A stretch of 64,000 nucleotides of DNA, taken from an uncultured Clostridia bacterium (GTDB lineage: Bacteria; Bacillota; Clostridia; TANB77; CAG-508). A model generated the notes under the pieces. It had not been told where the DNA came from. It saw only the letters and a program-made list of their open reading frames with translations, and made no database searches. The translations under genes and the position numbers were made by a program. Shown here piece by piece: positions 3,194 through 58,859 of this stretch (its first letter is position 1; the number at the start of each line of letters is the position of its first letter). The stretch spans positions 7,289 through 71,288 of the forward strand of contig CALXXE010000005.1 in the NCBI GenBank assembly GCA_944392605.1, given 5' to 3'.

Positions 3194-3318
3194 TTTAAAT
3201 ATTTATAAGAAAATGCTATCAAAAGGAATGAAAAAAGTCAATATAGAATATTCAAATTAATATATTATATTAAAAAACAAGATAAAAAATAAATATAGTA
3301 GAATAAAGTGAAAAACAA

Positions 3319-3678
3319 TTAAATGTTTCTAATTAGCATAATGAAATGCTTTATAAAATTTAATGTTTCAATTATTTCATCTTCTGAATAGTTTTGAAGT
3401 AATTCCTTTGTTTTATCAATACATTTATCATCAAGTCCATAAAGAATGTAATCAGCAGAATGTCCACTTAGATTTCTTAATTTTTTTAGACTTCTATATA
3501 CTAAATTTCCTTTCCCGTCTTCTACTAACCCCAAAAATTGACTAGATATACCTATTTCTTTGGCTAGCTCAGTTTTATTCATGTGTAGTTCATTTTCTCT
3601 TATGTCTCTTATTCTTTTTCCTCTTTTTTCTTGTTCCATTTTTTCTAATTCGTTATTATTATTATCACTTTTTTTCAT
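3319..3678 (-). CDS. XRE-family helix-turn-helix transcriptional regulator
   Basis: GKRIRDIRENELHMNKTELAKEIGISSQFLGLVEDGK is a classic HTH_3 motif. The gene is divergent from the response-regulator gene. Confidence 0.8.
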   Translation of the reverse strand: MKKSDNNNNELEKMEQEKRGKRIRDIRENELHMNKTELAKEIGISSQFLGLVEDGKGNLVYRSLKKLRNLSGHSADYILYGLDDKCIDKTKELLQNYSEDEIIETLNFIKHFIMLIRNI

Positions 3679-3818
3679 AATAAATACCTCATTTATTTTT
3701 TTCTATTTTATAAAATAAAAAATACAAATAGATAGTTAAAAATAATAAATAAATGTAGAAATTTGATGGGTTTTATGGTATATTGTAAGATATATAAAAC
3801 TAAAGGAGGCGTTTAGAA

Positions 3819-4604
3819 TTGACAAAGCCTATGAAAATTTTAATTGTAGAAGATGATATTAATGATTGTAATAATTTTATTAATTGTATTAAGAAAAGAG
3901 ATGACTTTGAACTAGTTGCTGTAACAGATTCTGATGTAGATGCATTAAAATATGTAAAACTAAAACATCCGGAAGGAATTGTATTAGATTTAGAATTAAA
4001 CAATAGTAAAAGTGGTAGCACAAATTCTTTAGAGTTTTTATCAAACTTGAAGAAACTAAATTTGAGTTATGAACCAATTGTTATTGTAACAACTCATGTA
4101 TATTCAAAGAAAACTTATGAAATTCTTCATAGAGAAGGAGTTGATTTAATTCTATATAAAGACCATCCTAAGTATTCTTGTGATAATGTTTTAAATAACT
4201 TTCTAATGTATAGAAATGTTTCTTCAGATAATCAACCTAAAACAATTTCTGAAGAAATAGAAGATAATGAAAATAAAATTTCAGATTTAATTAATCATGA
4301 ATTAGATTTGATTGGCGTAACTTCAAAACTTAAAGGAAGAAAATATATTCATGATGCTATTTTATATTTGATAGAAAATGAGAATAGCAATATTAATGTT
4401 ATTCAATATTTAACAAAGATTCATAAGAAATCCGGAAATACAATTACAAATGGTATTCAAAATGCAATTATTCATGCATGGAGAGTTTCATCAATTGAAG
4501 ATTTGGAAACTTATTATACTGCTAAAGTTAATTATGAAACAGGTGTACCAACACCTATGGAGTTTATATATTATTATGTAGATAAGATAAAGAAATTGAT
4601 CTAG
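3819..4604 (+). CDS. Response regulator with a receiver domain and a Spo0A-C-like DNA-binding domain
   Basis: The receiver has the acidic pocket ILIVEDD, phospho-acceptor VLDLEL, and T (VIVTTH) and K (ILYKDH) residues. The C-terminus LIGVTSKLKGRKYIHDAILYL..NGIQNAIIHAW parallels the Spo0A GVPAHIKGY..AI / RAIRHAIEVAW pattern. TTG start 9 nt after aaaggagg. Confidence 0.7.
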   Translation: MTKPMKILIVEDDINDCNNFINCIKKRDDFELVAVTDSDVDALKYVKLKHPEGIVLDLELNNSKSGSTNSLEFLSNLKKLNLSYEPIVIVTTHVYSKKTYEILHREGVDLILYKDHPKYSCDNVLNNFLMYRNVSSDNQPKTISEEIEDNENKISDLINHELDLIGVTSKLKGRKYIHDAILYLIENENSNINVIQYLTKIHKKSGNTITNGIQNAIIHAWRVSSIEDLETYYTAKVNYETGVPTPMEFIYYYVDKIKKLI

Positions 4605-4630
4605 TATTTAAAAAATACTAGATTTTTTTA
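4600..4630 (+). terminator. Rho-independent terminator after the response regulator
   Basis: 10-bp stem tctagtattt / aaatactaga, 3-nt loop, T7 run. Confidence 0.75.
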
Positions 4631-4736
4631 TTTTTCACCATTTTTTCTCATTAGGAAATACCAACTATCCAAGCCTACTTGGATGGTATTTTTTTTATAA
4701 CAAAAAGAAACAAAAATACCAAAGAAAAAGGTGGTG

Positions 4737-4796
4737 ATGAGTATGTCAGACTGGTTTGAAGGTCTATTAGAATGGATTAGATATTGGATAGGATAA
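4737..4796 (+). CDS. Candidate small Trp-rich peptide MSMSDWFEGLLEWIRYWIG (19 aa, or 17 aa from the second ATG at 4743)
   Basis: Below the ORF-track size cut-off and found by reading. RBS aaaggtggtg ends at 4736, 6 nt before the ATG at 4743. Flanked by hairpin + T-run structures at about 4659-4700 and 4818-4860. Sits between the response regulator and the kinase. Confidence 0.35.
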   Translation: MSMSDWFEGLLEWIRYWIG

Positions 4797-4886
4797 TAGA
4801 AGTGTAAATAATAAGAAAGATAATTGATATATTAAATATATTGATTATCTTTTGTTTTTTATGTATAATTTATAAGGTGAAGATTA

Positions 4887-6341
4887 TTGGAAAGTATAGC
4901 TAATGAACTTGTTGCAAATGTTATAAGAAATTTTTTTGTCTGTTTAGGAACTTATTGTACAATTATAAAATTTACAAATAAGAAACAGAAGGCTATTATA
5001 AAAACAATATTTATTATACTAATTACTAGCGTGTTATCTGCTCTAGCAAGTAAAGAATCAGGGCTAATATCTAGTTTAATAGTTCAAATATTGTTGATAT
5101 CAATCTTATATAGTTTTGTTATTAAGGTAGATATAGGATATGCATTAATTATAACAGCTATTTGTTTAAGTATAAATAACATTATATACCTTATTGCCAT
5201 AATATTTAATTATATAATAAATAATTTTTATAATATTCAAAACAATTATATAAATTTGTTAATATTAATATTATTTTACATATTTATTTTATATAGCGTT
5301 CTAAAATTAAAAAGAATAAAGAATGGAATTTCATTTTTAAGCGGGAAATTGAAGAATGAGTATTTTAATATATTAATACTCAATATAAGTGTAATAATAC
5401 TATTTTCTTTTACTATATTTACTAGTTCTGATATTAATTTTATTAGTAGAATATTCTTTATGGTTATAATTTTTTCTGCTATTATGTTTGTAACCATTCA
5501 AAAATCTTTACAGTTATATTATAAACAGAAAATGTTAGTTAAGGACTTGGAAGAAACAAAAGAAGAGTTGGAGAATAAGAAGAAAGAAGTAGAAGCATTA
5601 GAAAAAGAAAACTTAGAATTTAGTAAAATAAGTCATTCGATAGCACATAAGCAAAAATCTTTAGAACATAAATTAAATGAGTTAAGTATGAAAAGTGAAA
5701 TAGCAGATGAATTAGATATAAAAGATAGAATAGATGACTTGAGTAAGAATTTAATGAAAGAGACAATTGTAGTTTTAGATAAAACAGGAATAACTGAAAT
5801 AGATGATATGCTTTCTTATATGCAATCAGAATGTGTGAAAAATAAAATAGATTTTCAATTACAATTAAACGGTAACATCTATACAATGATAAATCATCAT
5901 ATAGATAAAGAAGAATTAGAAATATTACTTGCTGACCATATAAAAAATGCAATTATAGCAATCGGATATGGAGATAATGTAAATAAAAGTATTTTAGTAA
6001 GGCTTGGTAAAATAGATGGAAGTTATGGACTATATGTTTATGATTCAGGTATAGAGTTTGAAATAGAAACATTATTAAACTTAGGAAAGAAACCAAGTAC
6101 AACACATAAAGACTCAGGTGGTACTGGTATGGGATTCATGAATACTTTTGATACGTTAAGAAAACATAATGCAAGTTTTATAATAGAGGAATATGGAAAA
6201 CCTGTTAAAGATAACTTTACTAAAGCTCTAAAATTTAAGTTTAATGGTAAGAATGAATTTAAGATTTGTTCATATAGAGAAGAAGAAATAAAAAATAAAG
6301 ATAGAGAGAATTGTCTAATTGTAGAAAAACTATCTTTATAG
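4887..6341 (+). CDS. Membrane sensor histidine kinase, AgrC/GHKL-like (polytopic N-terminus, coiled coil, HATPase_c)
   Basis: About 6 TM helices lie in aa 1-205. A coiled-coil linker follows, with a candidate His box FSKISHSIAHKQKSL. The C-terminal ATPase has YVYDSGIEFE and the G2 box DSGGTGMGF. TTG start 6 nt after aaggtga. Confidence 0.75.
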   Translation: MESIANELVANVIRNFFVCLGTYCTIIKFTNKKQKAIIKTIFIILITSVLSALASKESGLISSLIVQILLISILYSFVIKVDIGYALIITAICLSINNIIYLIAIIFNYIINNFYNIQNNYINLLILILFYIFILYSVLKLKRIKNGISFLSGKLKNEYFNILILNISVIILFSFTIFTSSDINFISRIFFMVIIFSAIMFVTIQKSLQLYYKQKMLVKDLEETKEELENKKKEVEALEKENLEFSKISHSIAHKQKSLEHKLNELSMKSEIADELDIKDRIDDLSKNLMKETIVVLDKTGITEIDDMLSYMQSECVKNKIDFQLQLNGNIYTMINHHIDKEELEILLADHIKNAIIAIGYGDNVNKSILVRLGKIDGSYGLYVYDSGIEFEIETLLNLGKKPSTTHKDSGGTGMGFMNTFDTLRKHNASFIIEEYGKPVKDNFTKALKFKFNGKNEFKICSYREEEIKNKDRENCLIVEKLSL

Positions 6342-6398
6342 TAATAAAAATAAAGTATTAGCATAAGAATTAATAAGAAAAGGAGGTCTTATGCTAAT

Positions 6399-6974
6399 AT
6401 GGATTTAATTAAAAAAGCTTTTGATAAAGTAAAATCAAATAAGTTAATAAGAGTAGAATTGATTGTAATATTATTTAGCTTAATTTTAGGTACATTATTA
6501 CACTTTACATATGAATGGTCTGGTGAGAACTTATTTATAGGAAGTTTTAGTGCAGTAAATGAAAGTGTATGGGAACATTTAAAATTAGTATTTTATCCTA
6601 TGTTAATTGCAGCTATAGTAGAATATTTCTTTGTAAAAGATGTGTCTAATAATTATGTTGAAGCAAAAACAATAGGCATATTTACTGCGATATGCTTTAT
6701 AATAGTTTCATTTTTTACTTATTCAGGTATTATTGGAACAAGCATTATAGTAATAGATATTTTAATATTTATTATAAGTATAATTTTGGGTGAATATGTT
6801 GCATATAGGCTTATGAAAAGAGAAAATGAAAGTACTGTTACAACTGAGTGTTTATCAATTATTATACTTGTATTTTTACTTCTTTGCTTTATAATATTTA
6901 CATATTTACCACCAGAAGTTAATTTATTTAGAGATGTTACAACAGGAATATATGGAATAGGAAATATATTATAA
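6399..6974 (+). CDS. Polytopic membrane protein of unknown function (possibly a DUF6512-type family)
   Basis: 191 aa with 5-6 TM helices and the motif HFTYEWSGENLFIGSFSAVNESVWEHLKL. RBS aaaggagg upstream; terminator at 6974-7002. Confidence 0.55.
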   Translation: MDLIKKAFDKVKSNKLIRVELIVILFSLILGTLLHFTYEWSGENLFIGSFSAVNESVWEHLKLVFYPMLIAAIVEYFFVKDVSNNYVEAKTIGIFTAICFIIVSFFTYSGIIGTSIIVIDILIFIISIILGEYVAYRLMKRENESTVTTECLSIIILVFLLLCFIIFTYLPPEVNLFRDVTTGIYGIGNIL

Positions 6975-7040
6975 AAAGTAGGAAACACCTACTTTTTATT
7001 TTGCTTTTATATCTTAATTGGAAAAAATTTCAAAAAACTA

Positions 7041-7069
7041 TTGACAAAATTTGTAAAAATAATTATAAT
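7041..7069 (+). promoter_or_regulatory. Consensus sigma-A type promoter (TTGACA-17-TATAAT)
   Basis: ttgaca at 7041-7046, exactly 17 nt of spacer, tataat at 7064-7069. Confidence 0.55.
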
Positions 7070-7142
7070 AAGGACAGTTTTTAAATCAAAATATTTATTT
7101 TCTTAATATTTTATCGAAGATTTCAAACAAAAAGAGAATATG

Positions 7143-7309
7143 TTTAGATATCTGAGGCCATTATAAGCCCCTAATTTTGATCCCTAAATTAAATGAATTA
7201 TTCCCTATATTTTTAGTAAATTTATTTCAATCTTTAAAAAGTCCATAAATATAAAAAATAAAATGAAATTACAAATATAAAGTATTTATAATGGCCTCAG
7301 ATATCTAAA
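7143..7309. repeat. 167-bp MITE-like element or long hairpin with 24-bp perfect terminal inverted repeats
   Basis: tttagatatctgaggccattataa (7143-7166) is the exact reverse complement of 7286-7309. Both ends are flanked by TATG (7139-7142 and 7310-7313). The interior carries ccctaa/ccctaa/ccctat motifs. Confidence 0.5.
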
Positions 7310-7310
7310 T

Positions 7311-12292: not shown

Positions 12293-12375
12293 TATAGTAT
12301 TGAAATTCTTAAATTAGTAAACCTTAAATATAAAAAGTAATGAAATACAAAATTAGAAGGAAGGAGAAAGATGGT

Positions 12376-13221
12376 ATGGAAAAAGAGTTAGTAAATAAAA
12401 CAGAAAAAGATTTTGAGAGTATTAAACATATTGATGAAAATGGTGTGGAATTTTGGTATGCAAGAGAACTAATGACGATGTTAGAATATAAACAGTGGAG
12501 ACGTTTTGAACAAGTGATAGAAAAAGCAAAAGAAGCTTGTGAAAATAGCAATATAAAAGTAGATGACCATTTTGCCAACGTTGGCAAAATCGTGAAGGCG
12601 GGAGTAACTAGTAAAAATATTGGAGATATAAAATTAACTAGATATGCTTGTTACTTAATTGCTCAAAATGGAGATAGTAGAAAAAAAGCAATAGCAATGG
12701 CACAAACTTATTTTGCAGTTCAAACTAGAAAACAGGAAATAACAAGAAAAGAATATGAAAGTCTAAGTGAAGACGAAAAAAGACTATATACGAGAAAAAA
12801 TGTAAGAGATAAAAATAAATATTTATTTGATACTGCAAAAGCTGCAGGAGTTAAAAATTATGGAAAATTTAACAATTATGGATATAGAGGACTATATAAT
12901 GGAGAAACGGCAAAAGACATAGCAAATAGAAAAGGAATATCTCCAAGAGAAGATATATTAGATTATATGAGTAGTACAGAGCTTGCAGCTAATTTGTTTA
13001 GAATAACACAAACTGATGAAGTTAAAAAAAATAAAAATATAGATAATGAAAATGATGCTTGTAGAACGCACCATAATGTAGGACAAGCAGTTAGACAAAC
13101 AATAAAAAGAATCGGAGGTACAATGCCAGAGGATTTACCGACACCAAGTAGAAGTGCAAAAGAAATAGAAAAAGAAAGAAATAAGAATTTAAAAATTGAA
13201 AATAGAGAAAAATTAAATTAA
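12376..13221 (+). CDS. dinD: DNA damage-inducible protein D (DinD-like)
   Basis: FESIKHIDENGVEFWYARELMTMLEYKQWRRFEQVIEKAKEAC..TRYACYLIAQNGDSRKKAIAMAQTYFAVQTRKQE is the conserved DinD N-terminal region. ATG at 12376 is 9 nt after aggag. Confidence 0.8.
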   Translation: MEKELVNKTEKDFESIKHIDENGVEFWYARELMTMLEYKQWRRFEQVIEKAKEACENSNIKVDDHFANVGKIVKAGVTSKNIGDIKLTRYACYLIAQNGDSRKKAIAMAQTYFAVQTRKQEITRKEYESLSEDEKRLYTRKNVRDKNKYLFDTAKAAGVKNYGKFNNYGYRGLYNGETAKDIANRKGISPREDILDYMSSTELAANLFRITQTDEVKKNKNIDNENDACRTHHNVGQAVRQTIKRIGGTMPEDLPTPSRSAKEIEKERNKNLKIENREKLN

Positions 13222-22580: not shown

Positions 22581-23279
22581 ATGGAAGAAAACAATGAAGA
22601 GAAAAAGAATCAAGAACAAAAAAATGAAGCAATGATACATAAAGATAATTCTTTAAATAGATTAGATTTGTCATTTATAAAACATATTGATTTAAAAGAA
22701 TATAAATTATGTAATTTGTTAGCTTATTGGATTTATGATTTCGCTAATTATCATGATCAGGAAAGAGAATTTGATACAACTAAAATGATTACTTTTAAGC
22801 GTGGAAATATTATAAAGGCAAATTTAGGATTTAATGTTGGACATGAATTAGGTGGATTACATTATTGTATTGTTTTAGATAAAATTGATAATCCTAAAAA
22901 TGGAACTTTAAATGTAATACCATTAACTTCAAAGAAAAATAAAAAATATCCAAAATCTGCAATAGACTTAGGAAATGAAATTTTTGATACATTAAATGCT
23001 TTATATTCAAAAGAAATTAAAAAATTGTCTAATAAATATCAAGATATATGGAGTCTTCCGGCTGAAAGAGTAGAACAGTTTACATCTGATTTTGAATATG
23101 TAAAAAAGATAAAAGATGAAATATCAAAAATGAAAATAGGAAGTGTTGCTCTTATAAATCAAATAACCACAATAAGCAAACAGCGAATATTTGATGATGA
23201 TATTCTAAGAAGAGTTCGCTTATCTAAAGATAGTCTAGATTTATTAGATAAGAATATTATAAAATATTTTACAAAATAA
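22581..23279 (+). CDS. Oversized PemK/MazF-like toxin-fold protein (232 aa) with an N-terminal extension and an internal insertion
   Basis: FKRGNIIKANLGFNVGHELGGLHYCIVLDK..LNVIPLTSKK and the C-terminal GSVALINQITTISKQRI parallel the MazF blocks GD.....F....G.E..G.RP.LV.. / ..V.PLTS / S.....QIRTIDK.RL. No MazE-like ORF lies upstream. Confidence 0.55.
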   Translation: MEENNEEKKNQEQKNEAMIHKDNSLNRLDLSFIKHIDLKEYKLCNLLAYWIYDFANYHDQEREFDTTKMITFKRGNIIKANLGFNVGHELGGLHYCIVLDKIDNPKNGTLNVIPLTSKKNKKYPKSAIDLGNEIFDTLNALYSKEIKKLSNKYQDIWSLPAERVEQFTSDFEYVKKIKDEISKMKIGSVALINQITTISKQRIFDDDILRRVRLSKDSLDLLDKNIIKYFTK

Positions 23280-27391: not shown

Positions 27392-29218
27392 ATGCAAACA
27401 TGTTTTTTGATAGCTGTGATAATTACGATAGCTAGCATTATAGCTGTTTTTAAATATAAAGAAAACGCAAAAACTAAAATCGTTATAATGATAATTTCTT
27501 CAATTGTATCATTGTCAATATTAGTATTTCCACTAATAGAACAAGAAAATGTTGTTTTTAAAGTTATGAATTCGTTTTTTTATGCTATACAAAGTATAGG
27601 AATAAATCAAGATTTATCTTTAATATCTAGTATAGATTTACATACTTTACAAGGGATAGTATATTCTTTTTATATGTATTTACTTTTCTTGGCATTACCT
27701 GTTTTGACAGCTAGCGTTATTTTAATAGTTTTAGGTGATATATTTGTTAAAATAGAATTTGCCTTAAATAAAAATAAAAGACTTTATATTTTTTCAGAAA
27801 TGAATGAAAAATCATTAATGGTTGCAAAAAGGATTTTAAATAGAAAAGGAAATAATGCAAAAATAGTTTTTGCAAATTTTGATAGAGAAAAAAATAAGGA
27901 AAATATAAAAGCAATAAGGATATCAAATAGTATAGTAAACATAAAAATAGGAGATGAAAATAAAGTAACTTTTTATTTAATTTCCGAGAATGAAGAAGAA
28001 AATCTAGAAAATGCTTTAGAATTAATTACAAAATATCATAAAAGAGAAAAAACTAAAATATATGTAGTAAACAATTCAGAAGTTGCCACAATAATTTTAG
28101 ATTCCACAGATAAAGGAAAAATAAATGTAGAAATTATAAATGAAACTGAAAGAATGATTTATGATCTTTTAGATAGAATACCATTATATTTAAATTCAAT
28201 AAATGATAAAATATCTGTATTAATAGTTGGTTGCGGAAGAGTAGGTCAAGAATTTTTAAAAACAATTGTATGGTGTGGCCAAATAATCGGATATGAATTA
28301 GAGATAAATGTTATAGACATAAATGCTGATAAAATTAAAGAAGAAATAAATATAGAACAACCAGAACTTTTAGAAAATTATAATATAAATTTTATAAATG
28401 CAGATATTAAGTCTAAAAATGCAAGTGAAGAGATAGAAAAGCTATCAGAAGTAAATTATATATTTGTATCAATGGAAAGCGATGAAAAGAATATTGAGAC
28501 AGCAATTTTACTTAGAAGAATGTTCTTAAGACAAGATAAAGATGGGTTTAATAGACGTCCGATAATTAATTTATGGATAGACAATGAGAATAAGAAAGAG
28601 AAAATAAATGGACTAGTAAATGAAAGAAATAATTCATACAACTTAAATGCGTTTGGAAGTATTAAAGATATGTATTATGATAATTGTATAATAAATTCAA
28701 AATTAGAAAGCTTAGCAAAACAAGTTCATTTATCATACAGTCCAAAAGATGTTAATTTGAAACAATATAATTCATTGGAATATAATAAATGCTCTTCTAG
28801 AGCAACTGCACTTCATTTAAAATATAAATTATATTCTGTTTTAAGAGAAAAATATACTAACAATATAGAAGAAGATTTAAAAAATTATGAAGAGATTGCA
28901 AATGATAAAATAGTAGAGGAATTAAGTGAGAATGAGCACGAAAGATGGAATGCTTATACAAGAAGTATTGGATATACAAAAAAAACTATAGAAGAAGTAA
29001 AAAGTTATATAGAAAACACAGGGGATTATAGACATTTCTTAGCAAAATTCCATCCAGCTCTTGTAGAATATGAAGAGTTAGATAAAGTAAGTGAGGAACT
29101 AAATAAATTAACAGGAAAAGAGATTGATTTAAAAGAAAGCGATAGAATGATTATTAGAAATATACCAAATATCTTTAAAAAATATATTAAAAGGGGAGTT
29201 GTAAAAGGTGAAGAGTGA
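27392..29218 (+). CDS. Membrane protein with a Rossmann-type NAD(P)-binding fold and a C-terminal RyR-like domain
   Basis: 3-4 TM helices in aa 1-120. GxGxxG at VLIVGCGRVGQEF. The C-terminus ENEHERWNAYTRSIGY..FHPALVEYEELD resembles a second RyR-type repeat. Starts 4 nt after the gene 1 stop. Confidence 0.6.
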   Translation: MQTCFLIAVIITIASIIAVFKYKENAKTKIVIMIISSIVSLSILVFPLIEQENVVFKVMNSFFYAIQSIGINQDLSLISSIDLHTLQGIVYSFYMYLLFLALPVLTASVILIVLGDIFVKIEFALNKNKRLYIFSEMNEKSLMVAKRILNRKGNNAKIVFANFDREKNKENIKAIRISNSIVNIKIGDENKVTFYLISENEEENLENALELITKYHKREKTKIYVVNNSEVATIILDSTDKGKINVEIINETERMIYDLLDRIPLYLNSINDKISVLIVGCGRVGQEFLKTIVWCGQIIGYELEINVIDINADKIKEEINIEQPELLENYNINFINADIKSKNASEEIEKLSEVNYIFVSMESDEKNIETAILLRRMFLRQDKDGFNRRPIINLWIDNENKKEKINGLVNERNNSYNLNAFGSIKDMYYDNCIINSKLESLAKQVHLSYSPKDVNLKQYNSLEYNKCSSRATALHLKYKLYSVLREKYTNNIEEDLKNYEEIANDKIVEELSENEHERWNAYTRSIGYTKKTIEEVKSYIENTGDYRHFLAKFHPALVEYEELDKVSEELNKLTGKEIDLKESDRMIIRNIPNIFKKYIKRGVVKGEE

Positions 29219-31295
29219 TGTATTTATTAGTTATAGTTCAAAAGAATATGAAACAGCAAATATAGTAAGACAAACATTAAAAAGTAATAAAATAAAATGT
29301 TGGATGGCTCCTGAATCCATACCAGCAGGTTCTAATTATTCAAGAGAAATACCTAAAGGAATAAGAGAATCTCAGATTTTTTTACTTATATTATCTAGCT
29401 CATCTCAGGACTCAATATGGGTATCAAGAGAAATAGACCAAGCTTTAAATGAAAGAAAGATAATAATTCCTTTCCAAATAGAAGACTTTAAGTTGAATGA
29501 TTCTTTTAATTTTTATTTGAGCCAAGTGCAGAGAATTACAGCATTTACACAGCTACAAGATTCATTAAATAAGCTAGTCGAAAAGATAAAAGCAATTATA
29601 AATATAGAAAATGACAATAATACTGCTAATGAAAAGAAACAAGACGAAAAAGTTGTAAAACAACAAACAAAACAAAGTAAAAATACCATATATGATAATG
29701 GTGATATATATGAGGGAGAGTTAGTTGATGGCAAAAGAAATGGAAAAGGCAAAATGGAGTATGCAAATGGAGACATATATGAAGGATTATTTAAAAATGA
29801 TTTAAAAGCTGGAAAGGGTAAAATGACTTATGCAAATGGTGACATATATGAGGGATTTTTTGCAAAAGATAAACCAAGTGGAAGAGGAAGATACATATAT
29901 GTAAATGGCAATTACTATGAGGGATATTTTGCAGATGGTAAGTTTAACGGAAAAGGTAAGCTTAGATATGTTAATAGGAATATATATGAAGGAACCTTTG
30001 AAAACGGTTTACGAAATGGTGAAGGAAAACTTACATATTTTACAGGTAATGTATATGAGGGACAGTTTGATAAAGACAAAATGAATGGAAAAGGTAGAAT
30101 GACATATAATAATGGTAATGTATATGAAGGGGAATTCAAAGACAATAAACCTTGTGGAAAAGGTAAAATGGTTATTAAAGATTTAGGAGTATATGAAGGA
30201 GAGTTTTGTAAAGGAAAATTCAATGGAGAAGGTATGTTAAAAACAGAAAATGGTATTGTTAAAGAAGGAACATGGGAAAATAATAATTTAATTGGGCGAA
30301 TAAAACATACAGATAAAGATGGAGTAATAACCTTTGGAAATTGTACTTATAATGAAGTTGATAAAACTTATAAGTTAGTTTGGGAAGATATTGTAGATAG
30401 TTACGAAGGGCAAATGATGTATGGTTTATATAATGGAAAAGGAATATACAATTATGAAGATGGAACATATTATGAAGGAGATTGGAAAAATGGTTTAAAA
30501 GAAGGAAAAGGCAAAGCAACATATGAAGATGGAACATATTATGAAGGTGACTTTAAAGATGGAATAAGAGAGGGAAAAGGAAAATACGTATATAAAAATG
30601 GAACATATTATGAAGGAGATTTTAAAAATGGAACAAGTGAAGGAAAAGGCAAAGAAACATATGAAAATGGAAGTTATTATGTAGGGGAGTTTAAAAACGA
30701 CAAAAGAGAAGGAAAAGGAAAATATGTATATAATGATGGAACATATTATGAAGGAGAATGGAAAAATGATAAAAGTGAGGGAAAAGGCAAAGAAACATAT
30801 AATGATGGAAGTTATTATGAAGGTGAATTTAAAAATGGAATAAAAGAAGGAAAAGGTAAATATATATGGAAAGAAGGAACTTGTTATGAAGGCGATTTTA
30901 AAAACGGAGTAAGAGAAGGAAATGGAAAATATGTATATAATGATGGAACATATTATGAAGGAGAATGGAAAAATGATAAAAGTGAGGGAAAAGGCAAAGA
31001 AACATATGAAAGAGGAGGATATTATATAGGAGATTTTAAAAATAATAAAAGAGAAGGAAAAGGAAAACTAGTGGGAAAAAATGGAGAACTTTATGAGGGA
31101 GACTTTAAAAATGGCGTAGCAGAAGGAAATGGAAAAGAAACATTTAGAAATGGAGATTATAGAGAAGGTGAATATAAGGAATTTAAATTATATAATGGTG
31201 TTTATTATAATAAAAAGAGTAATAAAAAAATATATTATGAAAATGGAAACCCTTTAAATAAGATAGAAGCTTTATTTAAAAAGAAGAAAAAATAA
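29208..31295 (+). CDS. TIR-domain protein fused to about 21 MORN repeats
   Basis: N-terminal SDVFISYSSKEYETANIVRQTL...IFLLILSSSSQDSIWVSREIDQAL is a bacterial TIR with a candidate catalytic Glu in WVSREI. Two blocks of 23-aa repeats follow (Y.NGD.YEG.F.....GKGK; I count 9 + 12). The GTG start overlaps the gene 2 end by 11 nt. Confidence 0.85.
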   Translation: MKSDVFISYSSKEYETANIVRQTLKSNKIKCWMAPESIPAGSNYSREIPKGIRESQIFLLILSSSSQDSIWVSREIDQALNERKIIIPFQIEDFKLNDSFNFYLSQVQRITAFTQLQDSLNKLVEKIKAIINIENDNNTANEKKQDEKVVKQQTKQSKNTIYDNGDIYEGELVDGKRNGKGKMEYANGDIYEGLFKNDLKAGKGKMTYANGDIYEGFFAKDKPSGRGRYIYVNGNYYEGYFADGKFNGKGKLRYVNRNIYEGTFENGLRNGEGKLTYFTGNVYEGQFDKDKMNGKGRMTYNNGNVYEGEFKDNKPCGKGKMVIKDLGVYEGEFCKGKFNGEGMLKTENGIVKEGTWENNNLIGRIKHTDKDGVITFGNCTYNEVDKTYKLVWEDIVDSYEGQMMYGLYNGKGIYNYEDGTYYEGDWKNGLKEGKGKATYEDGTYYEGDFKDGIREGKGKYVYKNGTYYEGDFKNGTSEGKGKETYENGSYYVGEFKNDKREGKGKYVYNDGTYYEGEWKNDKSEGKGKETYNDGSYYEGEFKNGIKEGKGKYIWKEGTCYEGDFKNGVREGNGKYVYNDGTYYEGEWKNDKSEGKGKETYERGGYYIGDFKNNKREGKGKLVGKNGELYEGDFKNGVAEGNGKETFRNGDYREGEYKEFKLYNGVYYNKKSNKKIYYENGNPLNKIEALFKKKKK
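30717..30800 (+). repeat. 84-bp exact direct repeat inside the MORN array, copy 1
   Basis: ggaaaatatgtatataatgatgg...ggcaaagaaacatat is identical to 30924-31007. Offset is 207 bp, equal to three MORN units. Confidence 0.9.
30924..31007 (+). repeat. 84-bp exact direct repeat inside the MORN array, copy 2
   Basis: Identical to 30717-30800 by hand comparison. Confidence 0.9.
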
Positions 31296-57785: not shown

Positions 57786-58859
57786 TTGGAAGTTTTTAGT
57801 TACAATGATTATATAAAGTGCATACACACTTTGCGTCTTAATGCAGTTTTTAGATTGGCAGAAGAAGGGACAGAATATAATCTAGAAATACATAAACAAA
57901 AGAAAAAAATAAAAAATGTACATGATAAGATAATAAAAAAGATTTTAAAAAATAGAAACGAAGTAGCAAATATAATAAATGGCTTTGTAGGAATTAGAGA
58001 AAAAATAAAAGGAGAAAATTTAGTAAAATATACTAATAGTTTTGTAACTGGAAAATATAAATCAAGGGAAGCTGATATTGTATATAGATTAAAAGATAAA
58101 GATATATTTTTTTTAATAGAACATCAATCGTCAGTGGATAATAATATGGTATATAGGATGTTAGATTATTGTATTGATATTATTTATGATTGGAGTACGT
58201 CTATAAAAATAAAAAAAGGAATAAAATATCCAATTGTAGTGCCAATAGTTATTTATACAGGCACAGATAAATGGAGAGTATCTACAGATTTTAGTAAAAT
58301 GCAAATTAGTGATTATATATTTCAAAATTATAAAATAGATTTTAAATATAATTTAATTGAAATAAATAAGATTTCATTCAAGTATTTAATAGAAAAAAAG
58401 ACTTTGTTTTCACATGCTATGGCACTTGAAAAAACTAGAGACTATGAAGATTTTAAAGAAATATTAAATAAAATATTAATAGTAAGTAATAAAGATAAAG
58501 AGGTTCAGGAAGAATTATATAATATATCGTCACTTTTACTTGAAAATCTTATGAAAGACGGTTACAGTGAAGAATTTTTGGATGAAATATATTTTAAAAT
58601 AGAAGGAGGAAGAAGTATAATGCCAAGTTTATATGAAAGACAAGTTCAAGGATTTAGGAAAGATATTAGAAAATGGGTTGATGAGTATATACAAGAAGGA
58701 AAAGAGGAAGGAAAGGAAGAAGGAGAACGAAAGAGTATTAAGAAGGTTGTAAAAAATTTAATTGATAATAATAGTTCAGATGAGTTTATAATGAAAATTA
58801 CTAATATTACAAAAAATGAATTAGAAGAATATAAGAAAGAATTATTAGTAAATAATTAA
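57786..58859 (+). CDS. Rpn/YhgA-like PD-(D/E)XK recombination-promoting nuclease (putative transposase family)
   Basis: HDKIIKKIL.., READIVYRLKDKDIFFLIEHQSSVDNNMVYRMLDY, and the repetitive Glu/Lys C-terminus are typical of the family. TTG start after aaggagg. Confidence 0.7.
   Translation: MEVFSYNDYIKCIHTLRLNAVFRLAEEGTEYNLEIHKQKKKIKNVHDKIIKKILKNRNEVANIINGFVGIREKIKGENLVKYTNSFVTGKYKSREADIVYRLKDKDIFFLIEHQSSVDNNMVYRMLDYCIDIIYDWSTSIKIKKGIKYPIVVPIVIYTGTDKWRVSTDFSKMQISDYIFQNYKIDFKYNLIEINKISFKYLIEKKTLFSHAMALEKTRDYEDFKEILNKILIVSNKDKEVQEELYNISSLLLENLMKDGYSEEFLDEIYFKIEGGRSIMPSLYERQVQGFRKDIRKWVDEYIQEGKEEGKEEGERKSIKKVVKNLIDNNSSDEFIMKITNITKNELEEYKKELLVNN

Follow-up and report, generated by a model that had tools for sequence, protein, structure and literature searches.

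In a 64,000-nt stretch of contig CALXXE010000005.1 from an uncultured Clostridia bacterium (hereafter the window, with positions counted from its first nucleotide), the genes between positions 3,319 and 6,974 include one for a tryptophan-rich peptide of 17 residues and one for a polytopic histidine kinase (HK). The peptide and the membrane domain of the HK form a hypervariable allelic cassette within one species. The locus also encodes an XRE-family regulator, a response regulator (RR) with a Spo0A-like output domain and a DUF6512 membrane protein (Table 1). We consider it likely that this is a chromosomal quorum-sensing-type system, in which a peptide and a two-component pair come in several pherotypes. 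An initial annotation of the same DNA had listed the same five genes (XRE regulator, Spo0A-like RR, tiny open reading frame (ORF), polytopic kinase and membrane protein), all of which we find where it had placed them. It had read them as a peptide-signalling cassette that joins a Spo0A-output RR and a polytopic kinase to an unprocessed-looking linear peptide, with no AgrB, and the comparisons with related loci described here lend support to that reading.

These comparisons draw on 145 relatives found among species-representative genomes with the RR as query, from which 80 loci were kept. All 80 come from metagenome-assembled genomes of uncultured gut Clostridia from human (Hadza, Nepal), rabbit, goat and mouse, including Clostridium sp. 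CAG:343 and one closed chromosome of 1.55 Mb; every sequence used is a metagenome assembly of an uncultured organism. The window, from a lineage of uncultured low-GC gut Clostridia, has a G+C content of 26.7%, and the gene order XRE–RR–HK is kept in most of the 80 loci.

The cassette is seen in contigs that encode exactly the same RR protein as the window (L162, L163, L165 and L169). In their DNA, the left flank, the XRE–RR segment, the 3′ half of the HK gene, DUF6512 and the right flank are 96–99.6% identical to the window, the flanks by themselves reaching 98–99.6%, and neither the peptide ORF nor the 5′-most 600 nt of the HK gene gave a blastn match in these contigs. The contigs are identical through the ribosome-binding site (RBS), the ATG and codon 2 of the peptide and diverge thereafter, which places the left border of the cassette at codon 3. 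At the protein level, HK residues 1–200 are 31–40% identical and residues 201–484 are 97–98% identical. Independent metagenome contigs leave the window sequence at 4741–4748 and rejoin it at 5480–5484. At least four alleles occur at this one species level, with the peptides MSDWFEGLLEWIRYWIG (window), MSWFDAFWKWFSYWIG, MREWFDAFCKWFSLWI and MDWYDVFLKWLSLWL. Cassettes of this anatomy define the agr groups, the comCD pherotypes and the comQXP pherotypes.

Peptide and sensor also vary together across the wider set of loci. In a set of 66 HK pairs with a catalytic-domain identity of 85% or more, the identity of the sensor domain follows that of the peptide (Spearman 0.54, p = 3e-6, a value that is indicative only, the pairs being phylogenetically non-independent and uncorrected), whereas that of the catalytic domain does not (0.21). 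Mean sensor-domain identity is 37% for pairs with peptide identity below 40%, 50% at a peptide identity of 60–80% and 88% where the peptides are 100% identical. A separate peptide–sensor comparison gave the same trend.

The peptide ORF, its RBS and its residue pattern recur in the related loci more than chance would allow, and four observations bear on the ORF. First, the small ORF between RR and kinase, which the initial annotation had credited with a good RBS, is real: from the ATG at 4743, at which the spacing to the RBS (AAAGGTGGTG) is the same as in all relatives, it yields a 17-residue product. A nearly invariant AAAAGGTGGTGA lies 6–8 nt 5′ of the peptide ATG in all loci. Second, a neighbourhood comparison, chosen beforehand as a test able to overturn the proposal, found the small ORF kept between or next to the homologous RR and HK genes in all 60 first-set loci that carry the HK gene, in each case as a tryptophan-rich, amphipathic ORF of 13–20 residues behind the conserved RBS. 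A search anchored on the HK recovered it in 74 of 79 loci, and at least four of the five exceptions have no upstream sequence. Third, the ORF keeps its distance to the kinase gene, about 100 nt (median 104) 5′ of it, and stays at about 100–150 nt despite insertions between RR and HK (L029, L041, L050, L065 and L069) and also where some 40 kb lie between the two. Fourth, in two pairs of species that share an identical peptide with differing DNA, the changes in the ORF are synonymous only, and the 60 nt upstream are 70–88% identical.

The 64 loci compared for residue pattern hold 61 distinct peptides with a common pattern, W-arom-[DE]-x-[LF]-x-x-W-[ILV]-x-x-W-x-G. Counted from the central tryptophan, W(0), present in 58 of 61 peptides, it comprises W(−7) (40/61), an aromatic residue at −6, D/E(−5) (52/61), L/F(−3) (57/61), an aliphatic residue at +1, W(+4) (57/61) and G(+6) (32/43). 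The sequences are consistent with an amphipathic helix, with a mean hydrophobic moment of 0.54 as against 0.25 in shuffled sequences; their charge is near-neutral, and cysteine occurs in 14 of 61, at no fixed position. The peptide may be used unmodified: amphipathic helicity is computed for it, and no modifying enzyme is linked to its gene in the 80 neighbourhoods; modification or trimming by unlinked enzymes is possible.

A leaderless, amphipathic, helical peptide of 13–20 residues, with regulator-type repeats upstream of its gene, might alternatively serve mainly as an effector. It would then be a surfactant resembling phenol-soluble modulins (PSMs) or delta-toxin, or a leaderless bacteriocin, its gene being a target of the two-component system (TCS) and induction being secondary. 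The PSMs controlled by agr offer a precedent, as does plantaricin A, which is both pheromone and antimicrobial. We give this explanation little credence: it leaves unexplained why the sensor membrane domain is replaced jointly with the peptide, no immunity or transporter gene is linked to the peptide gene in the 80 neighbourhoods, and the peptides, at 13–17 residues and near-neutral charge, are shorter than known PSMs and leaderless bacteriocins.

The HK and the RR both look functional, as judged from their catalytic residues, the DHp–CA fold modelled for the kinase, the phosphorylatable receiver and the Spo0A_C domain. Generic two-component features are present in each, with the His, N, G1 and G2 boxes in the HK and the acidic pocket, Asp, Thr and Lys in the RR. 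In the HK, the phospho-acceptor is H250 (codon 5634–5636), and the catalytic residues of the GHKL domain are kept (N354, D386-x-G388 and G412-x-G414-x-G416). The initial annotation had pointed to an atypical His box, SHSIAHKQKS, and the box is indeed both real and unusual: H250 is invariant in 76 of 76 family kinases, H254 is limited to this clade, and the family box (n = 76) reads K-I-x-H-K-D-N-K-L-I-P-A-M-E. The description of the kinase as AgrC-like stands for its polytopic architecture and falls for its family. No curated family matched above threshold; the sole Pfam kinase match was to HATPase_c, at 21.7 bits against a cut-off of 26.4, with none to HATPase_c_5, and no HPK10 signature is present. 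A profile of the HK searched against all PDB sequences found only RsbW, at E = 0.01. A Foldseek search with the AlphaFold2 model (predicted local distance difference test score (pLDDT) 68) ranked ZraS, KinB and HK853 best and AgrC 28th.

In that model, residues 1–205 form seven helices, followed by a long helix that leads into the DHp–CA module. Conservation follows the same division: the frequency of the major residue per column is 0.42–0.63 over residues 1–200 and mostly 0.7–0.85 over residues 201–460, with a dip to 0.53–0.64 at residues 261–300. The Lys/Arg-rich loops at residues 31–37 and 141–157 suggest, on a reading of the model, that the N-terminus lies outside and that the external loops are very short. 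Short external loops would also suit a peptide that is never secreted and acts as a cell-autonomous partner of the kinase, tuning the HK of the same cell at the cytoplasmic or inner membrane interface, with co-evolution arising through contact. MgrB or SafA acting on PhoQ, and Sda acting on KinA, are analogues. The absence of a leader sequence and of an exporter conserved nearby, the short and strongly amphipathic helix, the strict linkage to the HK and the tracking of peptide identity by sensor identity would all fit such a partner. We nevertheless regard it as unlikely. The presence in a single species of several alleles that have sharp borders and have diverged to saturation is a mark of cell–cell discrimination, as in agr, comCD and comQXP, and we know of no report of this multi-allele pattern for intracellular kinase modulators. 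The peptide gene is, moreover, its own transcription unit with activator-type repeats, an arrangement that fits autoinduction.

The RR is probably a Spo0A paralogue, as judged by sequence profiles. The initial annotation had described a canonical receiver joined to a Spo0A-like output domain, and both assignments hold: Response_reg (PF00072) scores 33.2 bits against a Pfam cut-off of 30.2, and Spo0A_C (PF08769) scores 53.1 bits against 25, covering profile positions 1–104 of 104. A profile of 29 RR homologues matches two known structures of the Spo0A C-domain, 1LQ1 and 1FC3, over residues 159–259 (E ~9e-5), and a C-terminal domain that is not Spo0A-like, which had been named as grounds for dropping the proposal, is not what the profiles point to. 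The AlphaFold2 model of the RR has a mean pLDDT of 76.6; its Foldseek matches were all driven by the receiver and do not inform on the Spo0A_C fold, so the assignment of the output domain rests on the sequence profiles. Against the Spo0A equivalog model TIGR02875, the RR aligns end to end (model positions 2–256) and scores 66.1 bits, where the cut-off is 200. The receiver has an invariant acidic pocket (E11/D12) and invariant residues D57, T91 and K114, by which it should be phosphorylatable. The Spo0A recognition helix SRVERAIRHAIEVAW, which reads the 0A box, aligns with NTITNGIQNAIIHAW in the RR, with Arg and Glu replaced.

The likeness to Spo0A extends over the whole length of the protein, with the Spo0A_C signature. 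It also includes tandem repeats at the locus that resemble 0A boxes and, as predicted from the gene pairing, an RR fed directly by a histidine kinase, as with the orphan sporulation kinases of clostridia. The RR differs from Spo0A in its equivalog score (66 bits as against 200), in its altered recognition helix and in its gene neighbours, which are not spoIVB or recN. The RR–HK pairing also occurs in Anaerocolumna, Roseburia and Oscillospiraceae, which argues for a paralogue lineage.

The region between the RR and the peptide gene contains elements that could connect the two. In relatives, the direct repeats of the window (Table 1) are present in two to three copies, reading TTTTTCGCCAT or TTTTCGTCAT; in reverse complement, these correspond to the Spo0A-box consensus TGNCGAA. 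Between −150 and −50 relative to the peptide ATG, the motifs are 50–65-fold enriched over the remaining 1.4 Mb of the loci, and we infer that the RR binds them. Downstream of the repeats is a hairpin (4658–4697). RNAalifold gave no consensus for it, the register shifting between sequences, and a hand-specified structure was then supported: in 56 sequences, 85% of cells are paired as against 35–56% in slid controls, and 49 cells are compensatory, a number that none of 500 shuffles attained (22 in shuffles), with G–U pairs on the + strand only. The 3′ arm of the hairpin, ATGGTATTTT, occurs twice in the conserved block beside the XRE gene (ATATGGTATTTTATGAGATTTTATGGTATATTAT). The window keeps the second copy of that block, ATGGTATATT at 3775–3784, which can be read as an extended −10 (TRTGnTATATT) towards the RR gene; where the RR gene is separate, the block remains beside XRE. 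TGGTATTTT and TGGTATATT are putative extended −10 elements, possibly XRE operators, and the hairpin may be a terminator, an overlapping promoter or an operator. Another candidate for the peptide promoter, of sigma-A type and based on the conserved TTAACA/TTGACA-like hexamer that follows the T-run, was discarded, as it lacks a −10 and its start would fall inside the RBS.

The initial annotation had given each gene its own terminator. Terminator-like hairpins are indeed read after the RR, the peptide gene and DUF6512; none lies between HK and DUF6512, and none is evident after XRE. Upstream of HK, the strict pattern TTGAnn-N16-18-TAWAAT is found in 41 of 60 loci. This promoter bears on a reading in which the small ORF is a cis-acting leader peptide, and ribosomes stalling at its three Trp codons sense charged tRNA-Trp and set read-through into HK, as in trp-type control. 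Three conserved Trp codons in an ORF of 15–17 codons, followed directly by a strong hairpin and T-run 5′ of HK, are what such an attenuator would look like. We find it hardly tenable: HK has its own conserved −35 and −10, downstream of and overlapping the terminator, and a kinase promoter placed after the peptide terminator argues against attenuation. The tryptophans, at i, i+7 and i+11, fall on one helix face and are not in tandem, and D/E, L/F and G are conserved as well. Sensing of codons would not predict that the peptide changes along with the sensor at the protein level, as it does here, and no alternative antiterminator pairing was seen.

Table 1. Features of the peptide–kinase locus, in window coordinates
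Feature	Position	Strand	Description
XRE-family helix–turn–helix (HTH) regulator	3319-3678	-	119 aa; weak HTH_3 and HTH_19 matches
Promoter/operator block in the XRE–RR spacer	3750-3790	.	Family consensus ATATGGTATTTTATGAGATTTTATGGTATATTAT; from an alignment of 50+ loci and a motif search; putative function
Response regulator (RR)	3819-4604	+	261 aa; receiver (D57) and Spo0A_C; PF00072 and PF08769 above cut-offs
RR terminator (as read)	4601-4629	+	A+T-rich hairpin and T-run overlapping the RR stop; CTAGTA...TACTAG and T7 in most loci
Two direct repeats, TTTTTCACCAT and TTTTTTCTCAT	4631-4652	+	~11 bp apart; proposed sites for phosphorylated RR
Hairpin ATACC-N~20-ATGGTAT with T-run	4658-4697	+	Terminator scan; 3′ arm with TGGTATTTT, like an extended −10
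RBS AAAGGTGGTG	4727-4736	+	Upstream of the peptide ATG
Peptide gene, MSDWFEGLLEWIRYWIG	4743-4796	+	17 aa, without leader sequence; proposed pheromone
Hypervariable allelic cassette	4749-5480	+	Peptide codon 3 to end of HK membrane domain; partly conserved terminator/promoter inside
Peptide terminator (as read)	~4815-4860	+	Hairpin and T-run; RNA folds of the spacer in nearly all loci
HK promoter, sigma-A type	4841-4869	+	TTGATT, 17 nt, TATAAT; −35 within the 3′ arm of the terminator; scan score 10/12
Histidine kinase (HK)	4887-6341	+	484 aa; seven-transmembrane sensor (aa 1-~200), DHp, GHKL ATPase
DUF6512 membrane protein	6399-6974	+	191 aa; PF20122, 127 bits
Bidirectional terminator hairpin closing the unit	6971-6999	.	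Terminator scan; hairpin and T-run after DUF6512

On the reading that we prefer, a peptide quorum-sensing system, the kinase (from its own promoter, TTGATT-17-TATAAT) and the RR (from the extended −10) would be expressed at a basal level, and the leaderless, amphipathic 17-residue peptide would be made from its own small transcription unit, leave the cell through unlinked machinery and build up outside. The seven-helix sensor of the cognate kinase would recognize it at or within the membrane; the kinase would then autophosphorylate on H250 and pass the phosphoryl group to D57 of the RR. The phosphorylated RR, on the tandem Spo0A-box-like repeats 5′ of the peptide gene, would create positive feedback and presumably also control a further regulon, while the divergently encoded XRE protein would repress the system or set its threshold. 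Inherited jointly as an exchangeable cassette, peptide and sensor domain would give at least four specificity groups (pherotypes) among the strains of this one species. We infer that the peptide is translated and exported, that the kinase binds it, that phosphotransfer and autoinduction take place and that XRE acts as described; secretion and signalling are proposed from sequence comparison.

Several points weigh against this interpretation. Expression, translation and secretion of the peptide are predictions, and the promoter of its gene is putative. The hairpin and T-run between the repeats and the peptide RBS, which covariation supports, are not accounted for by the scheme. We know of no leaderless peptide that is sensed by a membrane kinase, and a strongly amphipathic, tryptophan-rich 15-mer could stay in the membrane of its own producer. 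No exporter, protease or modifying enzyme is conserved in the 80 neighbourhoods or present among the Pfam-scanned large ORFs of the window. More distant RR–HK pairs of Lachnospiraceae and Oscillospiraceae show no small ORF that recurs consistently among them, which means that kinases of this family can do without a peptide gene next to them. To these is added the dependence among the 66 HK pairs noted above.

The functional likeness of the locus is to agr, comCDE and comQXPA, and of the tested features that define membership in these families, only the hypervariable cassette was clearly found here. With agr, it shares a small peptide gene beside a polytopic kinase without a large extracellular domain, a hypervariable cassette of peptide and sensor membrane domain that yields groups within a species, and probable autoinduction through regulator repeats 5′ of the peptide gene. 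It differs from agr in lacking AgrB, an AgrD-type propeptide and a conserved cysteine for a thiolactone (14/61). Its kinase is not of the HPK10/HATPase_c_5 type (H-D-x-x-N) and has the H-box K-I-x-H-K-D-N-K, its RR carries Spo0A_C output where AgrA carries LytTR, and each gene seems to have its own promoter in place of one shared operon. The initial annotation had noted that no AgrB-type or other peptide-processing gene is present, and we found none in the cassette, in the 80 neighbourhoods or among the large window ORFs scanned with Pfam (at least 110 aa beyond 12 kb, plus the cassette ORFs), where AgrB, C39 and other processing genes were looked for.

The double-glycine systems ComC–ComD–ComE, BlpC–H–R and PlnA–B–CD resemble it in a signal that may be an unmodified, linear, amphipathic helix of about 15–17 residues, like mature competence-stimulating peptide, in a multi-pass kinase sensor and in pherotype polymorphism that ties peptide to receptor. 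An ORF of 13–20 residues is, however, too short for a double-glycine leader; no C39-peptidase ATP-binding cassette (ABC) exporter is found in the neighbourhoods or in the scanned window ORFs, the RR is not of the LytTR type, and the kinase family is unrelated by sequence. In ComQ–ComX–ComP–ComA, too, the polymorphic cassette ends within the N-terminal membrane domain of the kinase and the RR is not of the LytTR type, and the conserved tryptophan of the peptides recalls the prenylated tryptophan of ComX. Here, by contrast, neither the cassette nor the 80 neighbourhoods have an adjacent ComQ prenyltransferase gene, there is no propeptide, and the output is Spo0A_C in place of NarL/LuxR. The Rgg/ComR–SHP/XIP systems (RRNPP) likewise place a very short ORF without a Sec signal beside an XRE-family regulator; a Trp motif is found in their type II ComS/XIP peptides too, and their unlinked ABC exporter, PptAB, is a precedent for a system without a linked one. 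The XRE protein here, with 119 residues, lacks the TPR peptide-binding domain of those regulators, and the peptide co-varies with a membrane kinase, its proposed receptor, and not with a cytoplasmic regulator.

Three parts appear previously unrecognized: a family of leaderless tryptophan-rich peptides, a kinase family without a curated model and the output through a Spo0A paralogue. The chances seem to us evenly balanced that a new class of quorum sensing in Gram-positive bacteria has its first member in this locus, a class in which a ribosomal peptide has no leader and no dedicated processing or export genes, with new seven-transmembrane (7-TM) kinases and a Spo0A paralogue. Such a class would be widespread among the small-genome, uncultured Clostridia of human, rabbit, goat and mouse guts, with several pherotypes per species. 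If this is correct, peptide quorum sensing through a TCS would be freed from AgrB/AgrD, from double-glycine leaders and ComAB-type exporters, from ComQ/ComX, from HPK10 kinases and from LytTR or NarL outputs. It would also give a testable first function to the Spo0A paralogues of Clostridiales, including non-sporulating Faecalibacterium, with RR–HK pairs reaching into Lachnospiraceae and Oscillospiraceae. Strain-level ‘dialects’ could then serve as markers of social structure in abundant uncultured gut Clostridia, and the compact, orthogonal peptide–receptor pairs, four or more from a single species and dozens from all species together, would be of use in synthetic biology. The peptides are short and apparently unmodified and could be synthesized directly, making the hypothesis testable despite the uncultured hosts.

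The Spo0A-paralogue/7-TM-kinase pair is widespread in Clostridia, and the version with XRE and peptide is, by sequence comparison, a branch of small-genome gut lineages. Searched against 1.84 billion representatives, the RR profile retrieved, at the 50% identity level, 163 clusters with E <= 1e-30 and 483 with E <= 1e-10, and ten sampled distant members scored 63–101 bits on the Spo0A model, for which the cut-off is 200. For the kinase, metagenomes offer at least 2,978 clusters and thousands of peptide–kinase pairs. The distant RR loci are found in Lachnospiraceae (Roseburia, Agathobacter, Herbinix and Anaerocolumna xylanovorans DSM 12503), Oscillospiraceae, Acutalibacteraceae and others, and nearly all have a homologue of the same 7-TM kinase (24–38% identity) directly downstream. 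In at least 16 loci with an RR 42–49% identical to that of the window, Trp/Tyr-rich ORFs of 13–17 residues are present (for example, MSFWEWLLYWINGKG, MDWWTELMKALSYWCR and MWDELIDYIKKILGV), some together with XRE. Among loci L081–L160, including L093 4992–7451 (Anaerocolumna xylanovorans DSM 12503), the RR and the 7-TM HK of both cultured and uncultured Lachnospiraceae and Oscillospiraceae occur with no recognizable peptide ORF or XRE; a mini-ORF (MFVTV...) found immediately 5′ of the kinase in both L081 and L093 is unconvincing. Paralogues of spo0A have been noted in Clostridiales, with no function given (bioRxiv 10.1101/2022.02.25.481979), as have three Spo0A homologues in the non-sporulating Faecalibacterium duncaniae, again with no function given (PMC13020158).

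The XRE gene is kept and divergent in 61 of the 80 loci. Its 119-residue product matches DicA-like and control-protein models; these HTH matches are its only ones, and neither a TPR nor any other domain for peptide binding is present. The RR gene of about ten genomes lies about 40 kb off or on another contig while XRE, peptide and HK stay together, and this persistence marks XRE–peptide–HK as the core linkage group. One sub-clade (L048/L238 and L052/L232, each on the same contig, L040/L223, L058/L235, L059/L240 and L076/L241) has the RR alone between pcrA and an 82-aa ORF, with XRE–peptide–HK about 40 kb off or on another contig and the same repeats and hairpin 5′ of the peptide gene. A second kinase that seemed to lie in a 3-kb insertion of L164/L168 was dismissed: the 484-aa ORF there encodes an unrelated secreted protein.

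DUF6512 is accessory and neither core nor hypervariable. The initial annotation had counted this membrane protein as part of the cassette, a view that its presence in only 18 of 80 loci contradicts, and contigs with different pherotype alleles have it at 98% identity. Its co-transcription with HK is probable, with no terminator between them. By eye, the HK–DUF6512 spacer (6342–6398) holds a 10-bp stem (TTAGCATAAG / CTTATGCTAA) with the DUF6512 RBS in its loop and no T-run, so translational control of DUF6512 is possible.

Database searches with the locus returned little. No Rfam family matches positions 3200–7300 at E <= 1. As to RNA, one doubtful metatranscriptome and unlabelled runs in contig form turned up, and comparing them with the window gave the cassette borders and no transcript ends. 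As to an origin from mobile elements, no plasmid matched the HK, and the RR matched five phage-like contigs at only 23–28% identity; a PADLOC defence search of the cassette gave only weak HTH and receiver matches. None of four clusters looked up carried a name in the source annotations, and a literature search found no description of the signalling system or of DUF6512.

Elsewhere in the window, a perfect consensus promoter (TTGACA, 17 nt, TATAAT) lies at 7041–7069. It is followed at 7140–7310, just 5′ of a yraN-like gene, by an element of about 170 bp with a perfect inverted repeat of about 26 bp (ATGTTTAGATATCTGAGGCCATTATAA ... TTATAATGGCCTCAGATATCTAAA), whose RNA fold has an energy of −45.6 kcal/mol (z = −5.2). 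No Rfam family matches this element, related loci conserve its arms, and it could be a structured leader or small RNA, a miniature inverted-repeat transposable element or an invertible segment. At 27392–31295, a 608-aa ORF without a Pfam match overlaps by 11 nt the gene of a 695-aa protein with an N-terminal TIR domain and seven MORN repeats, which has weak PADLOC matches to ThsB and PDC-S66; the two-gene pair is a candidate for anti-phage defence. An ORF of 232 aa at 22581–23279, unusually long for a MazF-type toxin, has a PemK/MazF-like domain only at residues 73–133. Finally, a Bro-N domain protein (12340–13221) and a YhgA-like (Transposase_31) protein (57786–58859) suggest small mobile or phage-derived insertions in a region that otherwise carries housekeeping genes (addB, leuS, mfd and two type IA topoisomerases).

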